A stretch of 63,982 nt of DNA, filler included. It is 12 parts of 12 records of this genome, joined end to end, with 100 filler letters (N's around TTAATTAATTAA, not from the genome) between each part and the next. Parts side by side here need not be neighbours in the genome. Positions count along the whole stretch, not along the records: positions 50,825 to 56,945 come from SRR7504441_13697; 11 more parts are not named here. One strand, 5' to 3'. Position 1 is the first letter of the stretch. Each line of letters starts with the position of its first letter. Shown here one piece after another: positions 4,540 to 62,267 of the stretch. A model generated the notes under the pieces. It had not been told where the DNA came from, made no database searches, and saw nothing but the letters and a program-made list of their open reading frames with translations. A program made the translations under genes and the position numbers.

Positions 4540-4639
4540 NNNNNNNNNNNNNNNNNNNNNNNNNNNNNNNNNNNNNNNNNNNNTTAATTAATTAANNNNN
4601 NNNNNNNNNNNNNNNNNNNNNNNNNNNNNNNNNNNNNNN
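4540..4639. other. Artificial contig linker
   Basis: N44 + TTAATTAATTAA (stop in all six frames) + N44. Confidence 0.99.
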
Positions 4640-16758: not shown

Positions 16759-16858
16759 CCTCCACCTACCGGGCACGCCCCCCCGACGGGCTCAGGCGCT
16801 CAGGCCATATTCTTAGGATGTGCGTTTCGGTTTGCCGTTAATTAAAAGGCCGGCCCGA

Positions 16859-18568
16859 ATGGCACAGCTTGGAGCTGCGCTGTTGGCTCTGCTGTTGGCC
16901 GGCTCCGCCAACAGCGCCGCGATCAACCGGACGCAGGAGCTGCTGTGGCGGCCGCGCTACCACGTCACTGGGTGGTGGGGCGGCTCAGGCCACATCCAGG
17001 ACCCGGCGGCGCCATACCAAGACCGCACCGGTCTCTGGCACGTTTTCCCCGACTGCTGGCCTCAAACATGGAACCATGTAGTGGACGGCGGCAGCCCGGC
17101 CTATCCGGCCGGCCAGAACAACCTCGGCTGGTGCCACCTGACCTCCCCAGATCTGGTTCGGTGGAAGCATCAGCCGCCGGCCGTGTGGTGGGGCGGTGCC
17201 GCTGAGCCGCTGGTCAACGGCAGTGGGTTCACCGGAGGGTGCGGGACTGGCGGCGGGGCTGTGAACCAGCTGGGCGAGCTAGTGGTGTACTGCCCGCACG
17301 GGGTTGGCGGTATCAACACGTTTATAGCACCCAACGCCAGCGCCGTCCACAGCAAGCTCCAGCTAGTCGATCCGCCGCCAGCTGGGCTGAACTGTAGCTC
17401 GCCGGGCTGGCAGCCCGGATGCGCCATGCAGACCCCGCCGCACCCACCCAGGGCCACTTCGGACCCAGGCACCCCGTTTATGGCATCAGACGGTAACTAC
17501 TATACTGTCTGGGGTAACCGTGGAGGGCCGGGTGCTCTCGTCTATCTATATAAGAGCCTCAGCGGACCAGATCTGAGACACTTTGGGTACGTCTCAACAT
17601 TCTTTAACAGCTCTGTGGTGCCGAGGCAACGGTGCTTGGCGTACAACCAGGATCCACACCGCAACTGCACGACAGACCCGGAGCCGGCCTCAGTCACTGA
17701 GTGCCCAGACTTGTTCCAGGCACCGTCTGCGGCAGACTCCACCGGGCAACGGCACCTGATGATCGCCTCGTTGGGCTGCGGATCGTACGGCACAACGGCC
17801 TGGTGGTCGGACAGCTCGTGGGTGCCAGGGTCGAGGTTTGTAGTAAACAAGTCTGGCGTACTCGACTTTGGGTCGATGTATGCTCCCAAAAGCGCCGGCT
17901 CAAAGGATGGCAGCAGGCGGCTACTGTTCGGGTGGATCATGGAGGACTGGTGCGACAACGGCTGCAAGTACGCCAGTGCGTGTAATGACACGCAGCACCC
18001 GCTGGTGGATTGGGACGGCTCTCAAGCGCTCCCGCGAGAGCTGTCCGTCGACGCCGAGGGAAGGCTGCTGCAGGATCCGATCTGGGAGCTTCGGTCGTTG
18101 AGGATAGAGAGCTCGCGCGTTCATCTGGATGCGACGCTTGTCCAACCAGGCCAACGGCGCATCCTTGGGCACGGGCGGGCTCTCGAGCTAGAGATGCGCT
18201 GCTCGATGCCTGGGCCTGGCGCGGCCGTGGGCATTGACATTCTGGCCTCGGACCAGGAGCGCACACGATTTGTAATCAACGGCACTAGTCTCAAGCTGAT
18301 TATCGACCGGTCGTCCTCATCGTTGGGCCCAGTCGGGAACAAGTCTCCCTACTTTGCCGCACTAGAAGACCTCAGCATTCGGGAGGGCCAGCCGGTGCAG
18401 CTGACAATGTTTGTCGACCACAGTGTCGCCGAGATCTTTGTCAACAATCGAGTGGTGCTGACTTCGCGCCAGTATCCGGCCCTCTTAAAAAGCGACGAGG
18501 TGGCGTTGTGGGCTGAAGGCGCTGCGGTCAAGGTAGCGGAAGCAGATCTCTGGCAGCTGGCATGGTAG
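16859..18568 (+). CDS. Secreted glycoside hydrolase family 32 (beta-fructofuranosidase-like), intronless
   Basis: Signal peptide, RPRYH, IQDP (NDPN variant), WCHLTSPDLVRW, SDP (RDP variant), ECPDLF, LFGWI, LPREL, C-terminal FVDHSVAEIFVN. Confidence 0.9.
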   Translation: MAQLGAALLALLLAGSANSAAINRTQELLWRPRYHVTGWWGGSGHIQDPAAPYQDRTGLWHVFPDCWPQTWNHVVDGGSPAYPAGQNNLGWCHLTSPDLVRWKHQPPAVWWGGAAEPLVNGSGFTGGCGTGGGAVNQLGELVVYCPHGVGGINTFIAPNASAVHSKLQLVDPPPAGLNCSSPGWQPGCAMQTPPHPPRATSDPGTPFMASDGNYYTVWGNRGGPGALVYLYKSLSGPDLRHFGYVSTFFNSSVVPRQRCLAYNQDPHRNCTTDPEPASVTECPDLFQAPSAADSTGQRHLMIASLGCGSYGTTAWWSDSSWVPGSRFVVNKSGVLDFGSMYAPKSAGSKDGSRRLLFGWIMEDWCDNGCKYASACNDTQHPLVDWDGSQALPRELSVDAEGRLLQDPIWELRSLRIESSRVHLDATLVQPGQRRILGHGRALELEMRCSMPGPGAAVGIDILASDQERTRFVINGTSLKLIIDRSSSSLGPVGNKSPYFAALEDLSIREGQPVQLTMFVDHSVAEIFVNNRVVLTSRQYPALLKSDEVALWAEGAAVKVAEADLWQLAW

Positions 18569-20441: not shown

Positions 20442-20614
20442 AGTAGGAAGCTCGATTCCTCAAGTTTAGCTCGTTGTAAATTCATTTCTGAGTACTTAAC
20501 GGGCTGACTAATTCTGCATCTATGGGTGAACTGTACAAGTCATGATTGTAAGCAAGTAGTAAGCAAGCTTGCATTCTGGGTTTATTACGTATTTATTACG
20601 GGGTGTCACTTCAA

Positions 20615-41320: not shown

Positions 41321-42850
41321 GGGGACGAAGAACTGATTGCGGCAGCAGAAGCGACATTCAAGGCAGCTGAGCGGTCAGCAAAAGGCTGGTACGGACCAAA
41401 TCGGCCGGATCCTGCCAGCGCAGCTAGTAGGCGCGAGTGGGACCGCACCGAAGCGGCCCGGAAAAAGGCAGAGCTGGACAGTGTAGACCCCCAGAAACTG
41501 TCAGGTGATCAGGCAGGGCTGGACGACACAGACCCCCAGAAACTGCCAGATGAGAAGGCAAGGCTGGATGACAGGCAGAAGCATACAAGACCCATCCGGG
41601 CTAAGCCACTGTTTGCAGCTGCTGGGTTGCTAGCCAGTGCGGCTACTGTGGCCTCGACTGTGAGCACCGGCGGTTCAACAGCAGCCAAGAATGGGGCAGT
41701 ACCACAAGAGAAGGTGTTGGCACCTGAATGTCTGCAGGTTGCACAACACCCAGGGCAACCGCAGCACCCGAGGCAGGATTCTGCAGCGCAGGCATGGTTT
41801 GGGGGGTCAACTTTGCAAGAGCAACCGCGTCAGCAGCAAGAGGAGTTAGAGCAGCAACTTCCGGAGTCCAGGCCCGCAGCGCAGCTCGATGGGATTAGAG
41901 GGGCAGTAGTAGCGACGCCTGGGCAGCAAGTTGGAGGCAGCCGCGGGTTTGTACAGACAAGGCTCCAGCCGGAGGCAGAAAAGTTCAACGAGGCTCCAGC
42001 TGGACGAGGCGCCAACTGGTTTGGGCAGCTCTCAGGCGAAGTTGTATCCCCGTCCGGCAAGGCCAGCAGTATCAGCCTGAGCGAGCTGCTGTTCAGCCCG
42101 ACACAAGCACAGCTCCAGGATTCAGAGCTCAGAGATTCAGAGCTTAGGGATTCGAGCGAACCAGAGTCACGAAACAGTGCGGCTTCGCTGTGTGCTAGAG
42201 CTCTGCATCGAGCAGTGTCAGCCCAGCTCTTGGAAGCGTCACAGGAGGTAGAGAGCCAAGAGCTGGGCCAACTGCGGTCCAAGCTCCAGCAAGAAAGGGA
42301 GCAAAATGCGCTGTCTGTTTCGCAGCTCTCACAGGGTAGTCACGAGGGCCACACCAGCACTACAGCTGACGAGAGGGCGCCAGCTTTGGATGTGAAGCAA
42401 TTGTTGGAATCTCAAGACCCTTTTAGCCGGCTCAACTCCCGTTTAGCCAGCTTCATGGACGTGGCGGCGGCAGCGTCCGATAGGGAGGTGTTGGCACCCA
42501 AAGGTACTCAGAGCAACAGCAGCATACAGGTTGAAACGCCTCTCCAGGCCAGGCAGGAGAAAACGCAGCAGAGCAGCCGTAGGGTGCTCAAGCTTGCTCG
42601 CGGCGTGTTCGACATGGCGAGTACTGGCGGGGATGTAATAATCACAGGGGCTCATCACCTGAAAGCTATGCTTGCGCGCGTCAGCCAAGAGGGCAGGGAA
42701 AAGTGTATTGCTGCAATGGCGGACATGGACAGGGAACAGTGCGGGATGATAACATGGGAAGATTGGAGCAACTGGTGGACACAGTTGGATCCACTGGAAG
42801 CTGAAAGGCAGCTCCTCACGTTGTCGCAGCATGCTCGCAAGTCGGTGTGA
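41321..42850 (+). CDS. Large low-complexity protein with a C-terminal EF-hand-like motif, 5'-partial
   Basis: Frame open from the contig edge to TGA 42850. Contains MDREQCGMITWEDWSNWW. Confidence 0.65.
   Translation, partial: GDEELIAAAEATFKAAERSAKGWYGPNRPDPASAASRREWDRTEAARKKAELDSVDPQKLSGDQAGLDDTDPQKLPDEKARLDDRQKHTRPIRAKPLFAAAGLLASAATVASTVSTGGSTAAKNGAVPQEKVLAPECLQVAQHPGQPQHPRQDSAAQAWFGGSTLQEQPRQQQEELEQQLPESRPAAQLDGIRGAVVATPGQQVGGSRGFVQTRLQPEAEKFNEAPAGRGANWFGQLSGEVVSPSGKASSISLSELLFSPTQAQLQDSELRDSELRDSSEPESRNSAASLCARALHRAVSAQLLEASQEVESQELGQLRSKLQQEREQNALSVSQLSQGSHEGHTSTTADERAPALDVKQLLESQDPFSRLNSRLASFMDVAAAASDREVLAPKGTQSNSSIQVETPLQARQEKTQQSSRRVLKLARGVFDMASTGGDVIITGAHHLKAMLARVSQEGREKCIAAMADMDREQCGMITWEDWSNWWTQLDPLEAERQLLTLSQHARKSV
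41466..41573 (+). repeat. 45-nt (15-aa) coding tandem repeat, about 2.4 copies
   Basis: Units start at 41466, 41511 and 41556 (aggcaR.gctggaY....gacccccagaaactg). Confidence 0.85.
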
Positions 42851-42919
42851 GTAATTCATAACCTGCTCGCGGCCATGTTGCGACGGCGTGAAGAGCTGCC
42901 TTTTAGCTTCCAATGGATT
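42788..42919. repeat. Long imperfect inverted repeat (stem of about 60 bp) overlapping the CDS 3' end
   Basis: The left arm from 42789 matches the reverse complement of the arm ending 42918, with mostly transition differences. Confidence 0.92.
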
Positions 42920-43072
42920 ATATATATTGAGCTTTGTAATTATAGCTTTGTAACATTACAAGTCATGGAATTCACATTTATTTTTCTCATTGCAAGGTTG
43001 TTAATAGCGCTCTAGATCTCTCTCTAGCTATAGCTTATTACCTCTACGAGTAAATCCAAGTACACGACAAGT

Positions 43073-44741: not shown

Positions 44742-45593
44742 ATGGCTCCCAAGAAGAGGTCGCGGCCGTTCGAGGAGCCGGCTTTGGAGGGCAACCCACT
44801 GCTCTCCGGCTGGCAGGCCGCCCGGCAGGCCGAGCCACAGCTCGAGCGGGCGTTCGACCGTCGGCTGCCCGAGGCTGAGCGTGAGCGCCTCTACTACGAG
44901 GCCGAGGACCCCGAGCTGGCGCACAAGTACGCCTGGGCGATCCCGGACGCCCGGGCCATCCGGATCGTGGCGGCGTGCAGCCCGGTGGTCGAGATCGGGG
45001 CCGGGCGGGGCTACTGGGGCCGGCTGGTTCGGGATGCGGGCGGGGAGATCGCGTGCTACGATATCTGTCCGCAGGAGCCGCCGAGTCCGGAGCTGCCGGA
45101 GCCGTTCCCCAACTGGTACCGGGTGGAGCTGGGCGGGCCGGAGGCGATCGATCGGCACCCGGGAGCGGCGCTGATGCTCTGCTACCCGGACGACTTTGAG
45201 AGGAGCGACAGCAGCATGGCTCTGGAGGCGCTCGAGCGGTACAAGGGCGACACTGTGATCCATATAGGCGAGCTATTCGGGCAGTCGTTCTGCAAGCCGG
45301 GCGCGTTCGGCAAGACTACTGGGCCGGACGCCCAGGTATATCTGGCCGAGCATTTCCACAAGCTGCTCCAGGTGCCGCTCCCAAGCTGGTCGGCCTCGTG
45401 CGACACGCTGTCGGTCTGGCGCCGGAGCCAGCTGACCGAGATCGATGACAGCCAATACGCGGATGTGCCACCGGAGGAGCGGGTGGAGCTGGTCCAATGC
45501 TGCGAGCAGATGCGGCACTTGGTGGTGCCCGATAGCAAGACCTCAGCGACCCCAAAAGCTGCCAAAGCCGCAAAACAAAAGAAGCAGCGCTAA
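44742..45593 (+). CDS. SAM-dependent methyltransferase-like protein, intronless
   Basis: YAWAIP, VVEIGAGRGYW, LMLCYPD, VIHIGE. Confidence 0.7.
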   Translation: MAPKKRSRPFEEPALEGNPLLSGWQAARQAEPQLERAFDRRLPEAERERLYYEAEDPELAHKYAWAIPDARAIRIVAACSPVVEIGAGRGYWGRLVRDAGGEIACYDICPQEPPSPELPEPFPNWYRVELGGPEAIDRHPGAALMLCYPDDFERSDSSMALEALERYKGDTVIHIGELFGQSFCKPGAFGKTTGPDAQVYLAEHFHKLLQVPLPSWSASCDTLSVWRRSQLTEIDDSQYADVPPEERVELVQCCEQMRHLVVPDSKTSATPKAAKAAKQKKQR

Positions 45594-45685: not shown

Positions 45686-47314
45686 TCAGCACGCTTTCCG
45701 AGCCGCAAACCCATCCGGATAGAGGCATGCCTTACCGCCAGCAGTTGCGGGCCGCTCAACTGTGAATCGCATCACTTGTTCTCCACCCGCTTCGCATTCG
45801 CCCCACGCGAGCCAGACACCATGGCAGTCGGCCTTGAGAAGCCTGCCGCATGGCTCGACCCACCGCATCAACTGCATCCCGCTCCGAAGCCCCGCGAGAC
45901 GCGACGCGACAGTCGAATTGTAGCCACCCACAGCCGTGCTGGGGAGCGTCTCAAAATAATCCTTCACCCAGGGCCGGTAGCGGCTAGGTGCGGGCCTGCT
46001 CTGGCGCCACTCATCGCACTGCAAGCCGGCCGCATCAGTGTCAAAGCCCAGGCTGGCATTCCTGAAGCGCAGCTGATAAGCATCCGGGAACCATTTGTAC
46101 TCCGCCGTGACGGAGCCGGCTGTGTCAATGAACCGACCCACGCCTCTGCTGACCAACTCCTGGTCGCAGAAGAAGGACTGGTTGCCGTGCCATGCTGTCC
46201 GAAAGCAAAGGTCTCCGATCGAGTTATTCAAGAATACGTTGCCACTAAAGTTGCTCCGTGCGGGCGAGGCCCAGCCCTTTTCCGTGGAATTATAGCTCAG
46301 CATCCAGGCAAAGGTCGGGAAACGCTTTGCAAACTGCGATGTTATGAGTTCAGACACGCTGTGTACTCCAAACGCCTGCTCAGTTCGCCATATGTAGTCT
46401 CCAACGTCTCCTCTCCTGAGCGTGCCATTGTCGTATAGAGGCAGTGTGGCAATGTCTTGCTCGTCATCGGCATTCTCATTGTAGATCCCAACCCCGCCGG
46501 CGACTAGAAGATTGCCAGTCACATTGGCCCCAGGGCCGCCGTTCACTAGAATGCTCCTTCCTGCGGCCTTGTACAGGACATTCCCGGAGACATTTGATAT
46601 AGCCTGCATATGGCCATCAAAGTATATTCCTCCCCTGCCATGCAGTCCCGGAATCTCCATCGAATGATGGATGAAGTTCTCCCGAAAGGACATGCCGTAG
46701 CCCTGGTGCAGGCTCATCCCGTTATATATCACACCGCCGTCGCCCTCCGAGTATCCTGTGTTGAAAATCTCATTGTGATCGAGCATTGTCAGCGGCCCAT
46801 CGGGCGTAATGATCTGTCCTGGCGTGTCGTGGACAAGATTGTGTGAGAACCGATCGCCCATGCCACGGATCGCAATCCCACCATAGAACACTCCGCCCAT
46901 GAAAACCTCAGAGAAATGGTTATTTGCGATCAGGTTGTTGGTCGGCACGAGTGCGTTGAGGCTGGCTGGATCGCTTGCACCCTCACTCCTGATGTGCGAA
47001 CCAACGTCATAAACGTCATTCCCAATCACCTTGTGCCGTTGGCCGCCGGTGAGGGCGACGGCCTGGCCGGGCGAGTTGCGCACCACGCACCCTCCAACTG
47101 TGTTTGCCTCGCCGCCATTGATACTGATGGAGCCACCGCCTTGGACAATCACGTCTCTCAAAGTGAGATACGATGCGTTCACCATCTGCATGAAAACAAT
47201 CTCCTGCCACGAGCCCAGCCGGACCGTGCTCGGGTCGCCATTGTAGTCCTCTGGAGGGTAAATATACACTGTGCGTGCCCCATCAAACCACCATTCTCCC
47301 GGTGAGTCCACCTC
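45686..47314 (-). CDS. Right-handed parallel beta-helix protein (putative CAZyme) with a C-terminal TSP1-like module, 5'-partial, intronless
   Basis: DSPGEWWFD, repeated xxNNxx strands, DGGVIY, GIYFD, C-terminal DCHGVW..WGEC...GGKAC. Confidence 0.75.
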   Translation of the reverse strand, partial: EVDSPGEWWFDGARTVYIYPPEDYNGDPSTVRLGSWQEIVFMQMVNASYLTLRDVIVQGGGSISINGGEANTVGGCVVRNSPGQAVALTGGQRHKVIGNDVYDVGSHIRSEGASDPASLNALVPTNNLIANNHFSEVFMGGVFYGGIAIRGMGDRFSHNLVHDTPGQIITPDGPLTMLDHNEIFNTGYSEGDGGVIYNGMSLHQGYGMSFRENFIHHSMEIPGLHGRGGIYFDGHMQAISNVSGNVLYKAAGRSILVNGGPGANVTGNLLVAGGVGIYNENADDEQDIATLPLYDNGTLRRGDVGDYIWRTEQAFGVHSVSELITSQFAKRFPTFAWMLSYNSTEKGWASPARSNFSGNVFLNNSIGDLCFRTAWHGNQSFFCDQELVSRGVGRFIDTAGSVTAEYKWFPDAYQLRFRNASLGFDTDAAGLQCDEWRQSRPAPSRYRPWVKDYFETLPSTAVGGYNSTVASRLAGLRSGMQLMRWVEPCGRLLKADCHGVWLAWGECEAGGEQVMRFTVERPATAGGKACLYPDGFAARKAC

Positions 47315-54432: not shown

Positions 54433-55539
54433 ATGGCCGACGCGGGCACACCTGGGGAGTTGAACTGTTTCGGGTCTCAGGAGCCGCCGAGCGGGAACTG
54501 CTGGGCCGCCGCAGCGCCTGAGACAGCTGCGCCGGGGTGCATGCGCCGGTTCAAGGCGGTGGTGAGCTTCGACGGGCACGACTACCACGGCTGGCAGCTG
54601 CAGCGTAACGTCCAGCCCACCGTCCAGGGCCAGATCGAGTTCAGACTAGGCCAGTTCTTCGGCAAGTTCCAACAGATCCGGTGCCACCCTGCACAGCCGC
54701 CCGGCCCGACCCGCGGGCAGCACCGTGGTCAATGGGCGCACCGACAAAGGGGTGTCGGCCCGCGGCGCTGTGTTCCATCTGGATCTGATTCGTTTAAAGG
54801 ACCACCCGCGATATCAAACCGACCCGCGCTGTGCCGGGCCGGCGCTGACAACCGGGCTGCTGCTTACAGCCCTCCGAAACCAGCCGCGGGGTGACTTGCT
54901 CGTGAGGAGCGTGGCGGAGGTCTCACCCGGGCGCGGCCGGGGTCTCATCCAGTGGGACAGGTGGACCCTGCGTACTTCCACGCACGGGAGTCCGTCAAGG
55001 GCAAGCAGTACCGGTACACAGTCCTCGATGCCAAGGCCAACGGCGGTTGGGCCTCGCCATTCAGCTCTCGCTGGTGCTGGCCGCTGGGCGGTGGGCTGGC
55101 TGGGCTGTGAGGCTTGCTGAGCTGGGCCGCAGCCAAGGAGCTCGATTTGGACCGGATGCGCCGGGCGGCCCAGCGGCTGGTCGGCCGGCGGGACTTCCGG
55201 CACTACGCTATTATGGAGCCAGGGGACCCTCGGGAGCCTACCAGGCGGCTAGATAGGTTGGATGTTGCCCGGGTCGAGACGGCCGAGTTTGAAGGCGACT
55301 GCGAGGCCGGGTGCATCACGCCGGGCCGGGTAGTATTTGTGCTCGAGGCCGATTTTTTTCTCTATAAGATGTGCCGCAAGCTGGTCGGTACGCTGGTTGC
55401 AGTTGGTTGTGGGCAGTTGCCTGAGCAAGCGGTCGATGAGATCTTGGCTGGCACCGGCACCGAGCGAGTGGTCACCGCCCCGGGGGCTGGGTTGTGCCTA
55501 CACGAGGTTTACTATGATGAGATTGAAACAATTACTTAG
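54433..55539 (+). CDS. truA: tRNA pseudouridine synthase, TruA family, 3 introns
   Basis: FDGHDYHGWQ.Q, GRTDKGVSA, FHAR, Y.Y, FFLYKMCRKLVG, TAPGAGLCL. The start is 54433 or 54541. Confidence 0.92.
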
Positions 55540-55583
55540 ATTTAGTGAATATATTGGCGTCTAATTTGCTAATTGTGTATGGT

Positions 55584-55972
55584 GTTGCGCACTTGGAATC
55601 TCCTAGAAGTGCAGCTATATGATGGCCACTCGGGATTGCTTGGCCACAATAGCCGACATTGGTCCAGACAGGCCATGAGCTCGCACAACAGCTACATAGC
55701 TGAGTAATGCGAACGCATCATGATGGATGCGACTCAGGCCGTCTGAAACGCTCGTGATCTCCAGGTGGAGTAAATGCATTGAGCAACTGGATTTTGTGCA
55801 CTTGAAGACCCCAGGAAATGCTTGGTGCAACCGAGTTGGCTGACTCGGCCCACAGCACTTGAAGCCTGGGGTAAATGCTGGAATCAAGGAGGGCTGGATG
55901 GCACTTGAAGACTCTCAGGAAGTGCATGGCGGCACTTGAAGCCTGAGGGGAAATGCTTAATGGTCCAGCCCT
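55584..55972 (+). ncRNA. Candidate structured RNA with a repeated internal-loop motif, family unknown
   Basis: Five GCACTTG(A/G)A and six AA(A/G)TGC copies, nested complementary helices, G-U pairs favouring the + strand. Confidence 0.55.
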
Positions 55973-55982
55973 GGGCAGCAGC

Positions 55983-56869
55983 TCATTCGGCCGTGACGGT
56001 GCGCTCAAACAACGCTCTAAAACAGCTCCACCACTGGGTTTTGGCTGTTTCGGCTGGCCCCGGCACCAATTGCCACTGCGAGGGTCGCCACGGCCTCTTG
56101 ATGAACCTGCCCAGGCTCAGCAGCTAGCTCTCGGGGCACTCACGCATCCGACTCGGCGCATTGATCCACCAGTCGGTGGAGGCTCTTTTCGACTCCCTCG
56201 CCGGTGCGGGCACTGCGTCGGCCACTCAGCCCAGCAAGAGCAGAGCGCACGCCTGCACTCGGCGAACTGGGCACTGATCTCGTTGGCGAACTCGATGGCC
56301 GCTCTCTTGAGCGCGTGCCGCTCCTCCATCGGCAGCTGGTCAGCCTGGTCCAGCTTGTTGGCCAGCAGCATCACGTTCCCGGAGCCTACCCATCACTCAC
56401 CGGACCAGCCCGCAGCCACCCACCCAGCGCCCGGTCGCAGCCCTCATGCCGGCGCAGCTCCGGCAGCCAGAGCTGGCGCAGGCTGGCCAGGCTGGCCGGG
56501 TTGGTGCAGTCGTACACGAGTACTAGAGCGTCCACTCGGCGGTAATAGGAGGCCTGACCCGGCGTCCACACCAGTACTAGAGCGTCTCACCGAGATGGTT
56601 CTGAACCGCTCTTGGCCCGCGGTGTCCCAGAACTGGGCCTTGACCAGCTTGCCGGCGACCTCGCGCAGCACGATCCGGAAGTCTACCCCAATCGTGCTGG
56701 TCTGCTTCGAATCGAAGCTGCGCCCCGGCTGGCCACCCGCCCCGGCCGGGGGCACGCACGCATTGTCGGCGTACCGGAACAGGGTGCACGACTTGCCCAC
56801 TCCGCTGTCGCCGACAAGTACCAGCTTCATCAACTGGTCCGGCTGCTCGGCTCCACACATGCTGCTCAT
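55983..56869 (-). CDS. Divergent Rab-family GTPase lacking a C-terminal prenylation motif, 5 introns
   Basis: [38 protein letters not shown]. The spliced end reads [16 protein letters not shown]. Confidence 0.85.
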
Positions 56870-56945
56870 CGGTACCAGGTACAGGTACCTGGTAGACTCA
56901 CAACCGACGTGTCTCGCGCAATACACACTTTGCCACATAGGGTAA

Positions 56946-57045
56946 NNNNNNNNNNNNNNNNNNNNNNNNNNNNNNNNNNNNNNNNNNNNTTAATTAATTA
57001 ANNNNNNNNNNNNNNNNNNNNNNNNNNNNNNNNNNNNNNNNNNNN
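56946..57045. other. Artificial contig linker
   Basis: N44-TTAATTAATTAA-N44. Confidence 0.99.
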
Positions 57046-60048: not shown

Positions 60049-60148
60049 NNNNNNNNNNNNNNNNNNNNNNNNNNNNNNNNNNNNNNNNNNNNTTAATTAA
60101 TTAANNNNNNNNNNNNNNNNNNNNNNNNNNNNNNNNNNNNNNNNNNNN
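60049..60148. other. Artificial contig linker
   Basis: N44-TTAATTAATTAA-N44. Confidence 0.99.
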
Positions 60149-60330: not shown

Positions 60331-62220
60331 TCAAGCGCACACCAGGCCAGATTGGCACTTCTTGGATGAGTTTGAGTTCCCCGTCACGCATCGCTGCTCC
60401 ACCGAGCCCATCAACGGCGCACAGGCCCCCGCAGGCAGCAGCGACGAATTGAACTGCGTGCAGTTGATCTTGACTGAGCCATCAGTCACCACGTCGGCAG
60501 CAAAGCAGGCATTGCTGCAGGTGCCTGTGCGGCTAAGTGGCGGGTCGTTGCACGGCTCAGAGCTGCCGTCCACCTTCACATTCGCCATGCGCACCCGCAC
60601 CGCATTGTACTGGTTGCCCTGAATCACGAAATCGCTGGTCCGATACAACGGCAGCCCGTTTGGCTGTCCGGCTCGCGCGATGTGCAGTCCGTCTATCTGA
60701 ACATCCACGGAGGCGTCGCTGTTGACGGAGCAAGTGCCAGACCTGAACCATGGCCAGCTCCACGGGCAACTGTTCTTCGTGAACTGGTGAATCGGCCCGA
60801 TGAACACCGGGAACTGGAGCGTGTGTCCAGTCAGGGTAATGTTCTGATAGAGCACCTGTGCAGAGTTGCCGGGCGTGTCGATCTTGACGTAAATGCCTTT
60901 TCTCGTATCTGGCATCACGATGTTTCGAAACGTGACGTTCCGGGTGATGAAATTGCCCGACCACATAGTCCCAACCGTCAGGCCCTCCCCGGAGGCGGTT
61001 GAGTTCTCGACCAGCCAATTCTCGGACCAGATTCGCGAGCCGTCGTTGTCGCCCTTGACACAGATACAATCGTCCGCGTTCCTCACATATACGTCGTGCA
61101 CATGAATGTCCGAGCCCCAGATATCGATCCCGTCGGTGTTGAGTGCGAGCGCCCCGACCATGTTGCCCGGGGTTGTGGCCGGCTGGCTGCAGGAGACCTC
61201 AACCCGAACGTGTCGAATCACGACATTGTGCACCTTGTTGAAGTATGTCTGCCAGTTCGGGCCGTCTTGCACTGTGATCCGCTCGACCACCACTTGCGAG
61301 CTGGCAAACGTCAGCTCCGGGTCGGCGCCGATCTCAATCAGCGGCGGCGGGCCTGGGACGTGTCCGAATTCCCGCTGGAGGTACCAGAGCGTGCACCCAT
61401 TGGCGCTCACTTTGCCTTTGCCAGTCGAAGACGTGATCGTCACGTTGGTGAGCCCCTGAAAGAGGATGGCGTGCGCGTAACCGGTGCCGTTGGTGACGTT
61501 GGTCCACTCCTGGTGGCCTTGCCCGAAGTAGAGCTCGCCCTGCAGGTCAATCACTCCGTGGCTCAGCCTCAGCCCGACCACCCCGGCTGCCATGCAGAAC
61601 ACGCCCTCGGGCACAACCAGCCGGTCGCCCGGCCGCATCTGGGACAATTGTCCGTTGAGCAGATCCCGGTTCCGCCCGGCCGTCTGCTGGTCCCGCGAGC
61701 ACATCGGGTCGAGCAGCCGGCGCTTTGTCCCGTTGAATCGGATCTCCCGCCCTGCGGACCCGGCAGGGTAGGGCATCCAGGGCAGCGCTTCGGGCTCGCG
61801 GGCCGGGTCGAAGGCCGTGCCGACCGGGCAGGCGGTGCCGTTAGGCGGGTCGATCAGCGCGTGCGGGGTGGAATGCTCGGACTTGACCACGCACCGGCCT
61901 CCAAAGCTCTGCACTGTCCAGCTGGTGTTGGTCGGCCAGCGGCTGAAGGACTGTCCCGGGAGCATCCGAAACGGCAGCGCCGGCGCAGCAAGGTCGGGCT
62001 GGCTGAGGGTGCACTTTTTGTACTTGCAAGGGCACGGGCACTCGGGCTGGGCCTCGTCGCTCTCCCAGGCGAAGCCATTGTTGGCCCGGCAGAGCCAACG
62101 GAACCCGTGGTCCCCGGCGCCGCACTCGCAGAAGTTGGCAGGGCTGCCTGGGCACGGACTGGGTGGCACTTGGGCCAGGGCCAGCCCAATCACCACCACG
62201 CACGAGAGCGCTCGTGCCAT
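60331..62220 (-). CDS. Secreted glycoside hydrolase family 28 (polygalacturonase-like), intronless
   Basis: Signal peptide, Cys-rich N-terminus, NTDGID, ADDCICVK, GEG in place of GHG, GIYVK in place of RIK. Confidence 0.85.
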   Translation of the reverse strand: MARALSCVVVIGLALAQVPPSPCPGSPANFCECGAGDHGFRWLCRANNGFAWESDEAQPECPCPCKYKKCTLSQPDLAAPALPFRMLPGQSFSRWPTNTSWTVQSFGGRCVVKSEHSTPHALIDPPNGTACPVGTAFDPAREPEALPWMPYPAGSAGREIRFNGTKRRLLDPMCSRDQQTAGRNRDLLNGQLSQMRPGDRLVVPEGVFCMAAGVVGLRLSHGVIDLQGELYFGQGHQEWTNVTNGTGYAHAILFQGLTNVTITSSTGKGKVSANGCTLWYLQREFGHVPGPPPLIEIGADPELTFASSQVVVERITVQDGPNWQTYFNKVHNVVIRHVRVEVSCSQPATTPGNMVGALALNTDGIDIWGSDIHVHDVYVRNADDCICVKGDNDGSRIWSENWLVENSTASGEGLTVGTMWSGNFITRNVTFRNIVMPDTRKGIYVKIDTPGNSAQVLYQNITLTGHTLQFPVFIGPIHQFTKNSCPWSWPWFRSGTCSVNSDASVDVQIDGLHIARAGQPNGLPLYRTSDFVIQGNQYNAVRVRMANVKVDGSSEPCNDPPLSRTGTCSNACFAADVVTDGSVKINCTQFNSSLLPAGACAPLMGSVEQRCVTGNSNSSKKCQSGLVCA

Positions 62221-62267
62221 GTTCAAGTCAGTATTATCAAGTAACGGACTTCGTCAGCCGTCGCGGC

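Follow-up and report, generated by a model that had tools for sequence, protein, structure and literature searches.

Short motifs presented many times over by one structured RNA are familiar from multivalent decoys and scaffolds, including the GGA hairpins of CsrB and RsmZ, the roX boxes and the A-repeat of Xist. Two bulged motifs are also relevant here: the bulge-helix-bulge, a helix of 4 base pairs (bp) flanked by two bulges of 3 nucleotides (nt) each (PMC7714728), and the standard kink-turn, in which tandem sheared G:A and A:G pairs follow a 3-nt bulge (PMC8191799). Here we describe an element of about 390 nt at positions 55584–55972 of a stretch of 63,982 bases (the window, by which we mean the whole stretch of DNA that was analysed), lying between a gene for a truA-type pseudouridine synthase and one for a Rab-like small GTPase. 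An earlier note, made by inspection of the letters, had proposed a novel structured RNA at this place. The element is real and strongly folded, and is best explained as a structured RNA that presents a constant bulged module four to five times.

The comparison with described systems is close in kind and fails in detail. Like the multivalent decoys and scaffolds, the element repeats a short constant motif within a structured RNA and leaves the sequence between copies free, although the motifs of those RNAs lie in hairpin loops or single strands and not in paired, two-fold bulges, and there is no relation in sequence or family. With the bulge-helix-bulge of archaeal and eukaryal splicing endonuclease substrates it shares bulges on opposite strands that flank a short helix, a pseudo-two-fold arrangement suited to a dimeric enzyme or binding protein. 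However, its bulges are 4 nt long (GAAG four times, GGAA once) rather than 3 nt and are separated by 8–9 positions, both hairpins have a central helix of 8 bp instead of 4 bp, to which hairpin 2 adds an A.G mismatch, the flanking helices do not vary in sequence, and neither a tRNA nor an rRNA provides the context; we have therefore rejected this assignment. The kink-turn, too, is a helix, a short bulge starting with pyrimidines or G-A, and a second helix, and the plus strand of the element reads CUU-GA after a GCA stem. In the element, however, the AAA or AAG of the opposite strand pairs with CUU and leaves a 4-nt GAAG bulge with no cross-strand G:A or A:G pairs; none of the modules has a G at position 2n, and just one has a G at 1n. 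The likeness to kink-turn or selenocysteine insertion sequence (SECIS) cores drawn in the earlier note is thus lost, as the strand opposite the bulge holds no unpaired G-A and the module is a plain GAAG bulge beside a 6-bp helix. What is new here is that no family matches and that the definitions of similar motifs fail; the general kind, a pseudo-symmetric double bulge or a multivalent scaffold, is already known.

Architecture of the repeated module

The constant 10-mer GCACTTGAAG occurs on the plus strand at 55798, 55855, 55901 and 55932, and nowhere else in the window. In dinucleotide-preserving shuffles of the whole window (n = 100) the mean number of exact copies was 0.21 and no shuffle reached four, the number found here within 145 bases. 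When one mismatch was allowed there were nine matches against 4.5 expected, the five additional ones being scattered singles. A variant, GCACTTGGAA, begins at 55589. A second motif, AA(A/G)TGC, is found on the plus strand at 55607, 55772, 55816, 55873, 55920 and 55951; it shows no enrichment across the window (63 matches on both strands versus 64.7 expected), and 11 of the 63 are concentrated in 55589–55956. All of these positions had been read correctly in the earlier note. A loose pattern for the whole unit returned five plus-strand units from the window, every one at this locus, together with a further match at 45350–45375 that is unrelated to the element; unit 0, a degenerate module at 55589–55612, is palindromic and was therefore matched on the minus strand as well. 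A repeat finder reported a 25-nt family and a perfect 9-bp inverted repeat (55890–55898/55964–55972).

At maximal pairing the module is simpler than a 7-by-3 internal loop: it consists of a constant 6-bp helix, GCACUU/AA(A/G)UGC, followed directly by the 4-nt bulge (GAAG on the plus strand, CUUC on the minus) and then by a variable helix. In three of the four hairpin modules the constant helix has C.A as its fourth pair on the plus strand and U.G on the minus strand; in the remaining module this pair is C-G. Each of two tandem hairpins, with a three-way junction upstream of them, carries two modules whose bulges lie on opposite strands, 8–9 helix positions apart, in pseudo-two-fold symmetry. 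A-form geometry suggests that two bulges so placed, with a 5′ offset of 8–9 bp between the strands, lie on facing sides of the major groove.

Hairpin 1 (55798–55878; strand not called, as for the other domains) leads from a constant helix through the first GAAG bulge (55804–55807) and an 8-bp variable helix to a second constant helix and an apical arm that holds a CCGAGU/ACUCGG stem; the second bulge, 55861–55864, is on the 3′ strand. Its variable middles, 55808–55815 and 55865–55872, form eight Watson–Crick pairs, and a closing helix, GATTTTG/TGGAATC, contributes four Watson–Crick and three G.U pairs. Hairpin 2 (55890–55972) begins with a 9-bp closing helix, the inverted repeat named above, in which 9/9 pairs are Watson–Crick, and continues with a constant helix, a GAAG bulge (55907–55910), a variable helix, an inner constant helix that is Watson–Crick throughout, and a 6-nt loop, its second bulge lying at 55938–55941. 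The variable helix here comprises an A.G mismatch and eight pairs between 55912–55919 and 55942–55949, seven of them Watson–Crick and one a U.G (U55913.G55948). The repeated junction that the earlier note described, with complementary middles between constant, non-complementary flanks, is thus present in both hairpins, and both closing helices are as given there.

The two hairpins are paralogues, with a mean column identity of 78%. Relative to hairpin 1, hairpin 2 has an inserted pair, the extra U55915 of the 5′ arm being matched by an extra A55946 in the 3′ arm, and a C-to-U change that produces the wobble U55913.G55948; both are compensating changes between paralogous hairpins. One A-U pair has become the A.G mismatch.

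Upstream, a three-way junction of 83 nt (55665–55747) is built from a 13-bp outer stem and two inner hairpins. The third domain proposed earlier does fold, whilst its closure through unit 0 is not the one chosen by the minimum-energy folds: a fifth, weaker module can be drawn between 55589–55603 and 55767–55777, with a GGAA bulge, a U.U mismatch and a 4-bp helix, and likewise a U.G on the minus strand where the plus strand has C.A, but it competes with a perfect local 6-bp hairpin, 55589–55594/55607–55612 (GCACUU/AAGUGC), which the minimum-energy folds of both strands prefer. The helices listed in the earlier note are all in the sequence. CCGAGT/ACTCGG folds in full, whereas CGCATC/GATGCG forms only five pairs (GCAUC/GAUGC) and CTGAGT/ACTCAG only four.

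The element folds better than chance on both strands. For a stretch of 406 nt, 55575–55980, the minimum free energy on the plus strand was −160.6 kcal/mol against −138.7 for shuffled controls (z −3.75), and on the minus strand −158.3 against −123.0 (z −6.58), with 0/100 shuffles as good on either. The domains were also folded separately. Hairpin 1 gave −30.3 kcal/mol (z −2.37) on the plus and −38.7 (z −4.62) on the minus strand, hairpin 2 −39.3 (z −4.62) and −32.7 (z −4.24), and the three-way junction −37.4 (z −5.70) and −39.9 (z −5.30), with 0/200 shuffles as good in either orientation of the junction; the first 81 nt of the element were weak on the plus strand (z −0.98) and reached z −2.90 on the minus. 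The strongest internal argument for the structure is not energy, however, but the occurrence of identical flanks, in the same orientation and non-complementary, around complementary middles. A plain DNA palindrome would neither give such a pattern nor keep it.

The energies are in conflict as to strand, hairpin 1 being better by 8.4 kcal/mol on the minus strand and hairpin 2 by 6.6 kcal/mol on the plus strand, and a call by energy and by G.U count ends in a tie. The U.G of hairpin 2, the G.U-rich closing helix of hairpin 1 and a TATA-like box point to the plus strand; the U.G pairs of the constant helices, a natural variant at 55836, the stronger z-score and the position of an AT-rich island point to the minus strand. 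Between the upstream domain and hairpin 1 lies GAUUUUGU (55790–55797, plus strand), which may be read as the 5′ arm of the weak G.U-rich closing helix or as a single-stranded tract resembling an Sm site or a T4 tract. Both readings apply to the plus strand only, and in the plus-strand minimum-energy fold the tract is paired.

Searches for relatives

No family in Rfam 15 matched anywhere in the window at gathering score. In permissive scans over the element the best matches were Xist_exon4 (15.9 bits, gathering score 100) and mir-3135 (14.8 bits, gathering score 80, E 7.9), both at chance level, and models of RNase P, RNase MRP, the signal recognition particle (SRP) and small nuclear RNAs (snRNAs; U1, U2, U4, U5 and others) gave no match even at E values up to 10. 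ARAGORN found no tRNA in the window.

Consensus features were also inspected by eye. In box C/D small nucleolar RNAs (snoRNAs) a terminal stem brings together a 5′-proximal C box (RUGAUGA) and a 3′-proximal D box (CUGA); the element has just AUGAUGG (55617 and 55719), lacking the final A, its CUGA sequences are inside stems and it has no terminal stem. Rfam gave no C/D match over the element, a further difference from kink-turn RNAs of the box C/D, L7Ae-type. Box H/ACA snoRNAs consist of a hairpin, an ANANNA hinge and a second hairpin, with ACA 3 nt from the end and large pseudouridylation pockets. The hinge at 55879–55889 lacks ANANNA, no ACA follows hairpin 2, and the hairpins carry 4-nt bulges instead of two-sided pockets. 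The earlier note had likewise been unable to match the element to H/ACA, C/D, SRP or RNase P/MRP, and our scans and inspection agree. SECIS elements contain a non-Watson–Crick quartet, AUGA/GA, and an unpaired AAR in the apical loop; here the 3′ strand of the module has no GA, Rfam returned no SECIS match and no selenoprotein gene was recognised nearby. An Sm-class snRNA has, besides the conserved sequences of its own family, a single-stranded RAU4-6GR site between stem-loops, for which GAUUUUGU would be the candidate on the plus strand. Telomerase RNA was rejected on inspection of the spacer, which shows no run resembling a telomere template.

A coding repeat was rejected as well. The spacings of 57, 46 and 31 nt leave the units without a common reading frame, and GC content by codon position is flat in the element (0.49/0.55/0.55), as against third-position GC (GC3) of 0.73–0.93 in the Rab-like exons. 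A protein-level search with a 96-residue open reading frame (ORF) across the element gave four word-sharing candidates, none of which scored.

Homologues were sought by scanning for two units of the motif, and none with the architecture of the element was found in the collections scanned. There were four loci in JGI metagenome contigs, all unrelated (coding sequence or other tandem repeats), seven in one genome each of 185,579 prokaryote species and eight in viral contigs; 0/19 had complementary middles or the architecture of the element. A single-unit scan of the viral contigs returned at least 115 stretches with one match each, which we take as chance hits. A text search of the literature with four spellings of the 10-mer produced, among the matches listed, none on an RNA family, the titles being animal, cell-biology and method papers.

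Transcription and competing explanations

Published sequencing runs were searched with a 2.6-kilobase (kb) query. None contains half of it; 20 of the 24 runs listed contain a small part (six of these 20 being RNA), and contigs of four were aligned: a DNA run (X1), a metatranscriptome (X6) and two oligo-dT libraries (X9 and X15). The small word shares in the other 20 listed runs are no evidence of habitat or expression. On the question of transcription raised by the earlier note, the element is present in one RNA library: X6 yields a 271-nt contig over 55703–55972, at a depth of 4.75, that differs at two sites (55780 T>C and 55836 T>C). No other piece of that run is near-identical on a stretch of about 2.5 kb, the remaining pieces being matches of 33–43 nt with 3–6 differences to the conserved GTPase core. 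The DNA run has contigs at 55758–55972, 56013–56280 and 56402–56676 (depths 2.7, 2.5 and 4.25), the last of which includes intron sequence; its cover resumes only at 56013, and 55973–56012 may be polymorphic or replaced in wild strains. X9 and X15 contain spliced Rab-like exons (56273–56554, depths 3.6 and 2.3) and no contig on 55540–56270, whilst 55540–55700 is without cover in the aligned runs and has no bearing either way. That the element and the Rab-like mRNA turn up in libraries of different kinds, if at low depth and in few of them, hints at a separate, non-polyadenylated RNA of the element.

Four variant sites fall within the element, three in loops or bulges (55780, 55930 and 55941, the last turning one GAAG into GAAA) and one, 55836, on the loop-closing pair of the apical stem. 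Divergence is about 1% in both the element and the Rab-like-side contigs, and is thus uninformative on constraint.

We favour, at a probability of a little under 0.4, a stand-alone, probably non-polyadenylated RNA whose four to five identical bulge modules would offer docking sites to a single RNA-binding protein or nuclease, bound in several copies or as dimers. The variable helix would be just a spacer, its sequence being free provided that the two arms remain complementary. The multivalent protein scaffold of the earlier note stays our best functional guess. It is doubtful that the element goes further and represents a new RNA family of this stand-alone kind, with an undescribed recognition module read by a dimeric protein or nuclease. 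Such a module would comprise the constant 6-bp helix, with its wobble or mismatch at the fourth pair, beside the 4-nt bulge, and the modules, paired two-fold across a spacer helix of 8–9 bp, would amount to a bulge-helix-bulge analogue with wider spacing. Modules that prove to be real recognition sites would constitute a new RNA–protein or RNA–nuclease motif with built-in two-fold symmetry, a defined bait for the binding protein and a family absent from Rfam.

Several observations weigh against an independent, protein-docking RNA. In a 150-nt scan corrected for GC content, windows of the element rank 28th–72nd of 816 on the plus strand and 15th–94th on the minus strand, with one at 430th; the element is not the most structured place in the window, the outlier being at 42751. 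The strands are equally good, with nine pairs that are G.U-only on the plus strand against ten on the minus, so that the plus-strand preference of G-U pairs claimed in the earlier note is not seen, and young or unselected inverted repeats would be balanced in the same way. The evidence from RNA amounts to one contig of low depth in one library; the contig carries no strand, and DNA carry-over is possible. It stops one letter beyond 55972, where the closing helix has its last base, and so does the X1 DNA contig, which comes from a different study; this coincidence argues for an effect of assembly or polymorphism rather than an RNA end. No other-species homologue came from the collections scanned, and covariation rests on two paralogous hairpins; no promoter or terminator has been established for the element, and the docking of a protein is purely inferred.

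The first alternative is a structured 3′ untranslated region (UTR) of the Rab-like gene, on the minus strand, with a cis role in stability, localisation or 3′-end formation and possibly a stable fragment. We regard this as possible, if unlikely. The gene (55983–56945, minus strand; Pfam Ras, E 7.2e-17) was traced by exon translation and by spliced contigs, and it converges on the truA-type gene, the element filling the spacer between them. Contigs from the two oligo-dT libraries, which are of different studies, show two GT..AG introns, of 38 nt (56385–56422) and 37 nt (56553–56589); short introns spliced out in RNA identify the window as eukaryotic. The apparent stop codon, TGA at 56140–56142, sits within a GTGAGT, the start of a candidate third intron of 37 nt (56143–56107, GTGAGT..CAG) that contains it. 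This candidate, of the size of the two verified introns, would if spliced shift the stop to 55983–55985, 11 nt from hairpin 2, and the tail beyond it has a GC3 of 0.71 against 0.47 and 0.62 at the other codon positions. Viewed from the Rab-like gene, the sole AT-rich island of the spacer lies beyond the element, and another gene of the window has the same order of stop codon, long hairpin and AT-rich island with TGTAA. The minus strand has U.G where the plus strand has C.A in three of the four hairpin modules and in the candidate fifth junction, the variant 55836 T>C keeps its pair as G.U on the minus strand and breaks it on the plus, and the whole-element z-score is stronger on the minus strand. 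On the other side, and at low depths throughout, the two oligo-dT libraries contain Rab-like exons and none of the supposed UTR, whilst the library with the element holds no Rab-like exon of the same species. Hairpin 2 is the weaker on the minus strand, by the 6.6 kcal/mol given above, and its central helix there contains a C.A mismatch. TGTAA, which from its distribution looks like the poly(A) signal of the organism, follows the stop by about 35–100 nt in two genes examined, so that a UTR of 400–600 nt would be unusual, and neither TGTAA nor TTACA occurs on either strand in 55300–56400. Were this explanation correct, the UTR would be unusually long and ordered for a compact genome with introns of 37–38 nt, and would offer a handle on the 3′-end biology of the lineage.

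The second alternative, which we consider improbable, is a cluster of inverted repeats at the level of DNA, or the relic of a small mobile element, passively transcribed and without RNA function; the element would then be ordinary. The structure is almost wholly Watson–Crick, and the minimum-energy folds of the two strands have 110 Watson–Crick pairs in common. A second, near-perfect inverted repeat of 118 nt in the window demonstrates that this genome does make long palindromes, and the contigs of two studies break at the same base at the edge of the element, as they do at repeat boundaries. However, neither palindrome formation nor arm-to-arm conversion would make or keep the identical, non-complementary flanks. 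There is a single locus in 64 kb, and DNA depth is the same over the element (2.7) as in the neighbouring contigs (2.5 and 4.25), so that the element looks single-copy. The element as a whole does not end in inverted repeats, no duplicated flank accompanies the 9-bp arms of hairpin 2, and no terminal inverted repeat with target-site duplication, of the type of a miniature inverted-repeat transposable element, brackets the element.

Less probable again is a 3′ UTR of the truA-type gene on the plus strand, to which the synthase itself might bind for feedback control. The last exon of this gene (55114–55539, plus strand) encodes a truA/Pus3-type domain (Pfam PF01416, E 7.2e-17), and the element starts 45 nt after the stop codon (55537–55539). 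TruA of E. coli is a homodimer, which the two-fold symmetry would suit, and neither the U.G of hairpin 2 nor the closing helix of hairpin 1, rich in G.U, works on the minus strand. Yet the truA stop lies inside the AT-rich island, the expected end of the transcript, no RNA contig in the aligned runs joins truA to the element, and the constant helix on the plus strand carries the C.A mismatch in three of four modules. This option, one of those in the earlier note, is consequently the weakest of the three contexts. The least probable of all is a cluster of small-RNA precursors in which each arm yields a small RNA with the same first ten bases, for although the four arms are of 24–25 nt with the 10-mer at the 5′ end of each, a second and much longer hairpin in the window resembles a microRNA precursor, and there is the sub-threshold likeness to mir-3135, that match is at chance level and the stems are short (about 20 bp) and interrupted by two 4-nt bulges.

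Other features of the window

The AT-rich island that holds the truA stop (55495–55588, no strand assigned), with TATATT at 55551, about 30 nt before the start of the element, may serve either gene, or both, as a poly(A) zone, or may be the promoter of a plus-strand RNA. Relatives of the truA-type protein carry the name tRNA pseudouridine38-40 synthase; in a search of 5.8 billion proteins the best of them was just 57% identical, which indicates that the organism is poorly sampled. A scan for small GT..AG introns in this gene did not result in a gene model. Within the gene region, a GCTGG-rich simple repeat (55092–55125) draws a short DNA contig whose two ends are both loose, and is probably a microsatellite common to other loci or organisms.

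The most structured place in the window is the 118-nt inverted repeat at 42795–42912, with folding energies of −93.9 kcal/mol on the plus strand (z −12.05) and −83.4 on the minus (z −12.28). It spans the stop codon of an ORF at 41627–42850 and is followed by an AT-rich island with two copies of TGTAA. Like the element it is strongly structured and stands at the end of a gene before an AT-rich island; it differs in being a single inverted repeat with no repeated constant module, and in that the plus strand is clearly better, by 10.5 kcal/mol. It could be a 3′-end hairpin, a small-RNA precursor or a palindromic insertion.

There are 42 AT-rich islands in the 64-kb window, lying between genes, and many contain TGTAA (35 on the plus strand, 21 on the minus), as at 20476, 42935–42960 and 63370. 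Masked or unknown stretches account for 968 N in the window, the first at 4540 and the last at 60148, and a run near 56950–57045 interrupts the 5′ part of the Rab-like gene region. Finally, ORFs at 16820–18568, 45686–47311 and 60331–62226 carry domains of GH32 (invertase-type), right-handed beta-helix and GH28 (polygalacturonase-type) kind, respectively, whose presence suggests an osmotrophic, carbohydrate-degrading lifestyle for the organism, a marine eukaryote.

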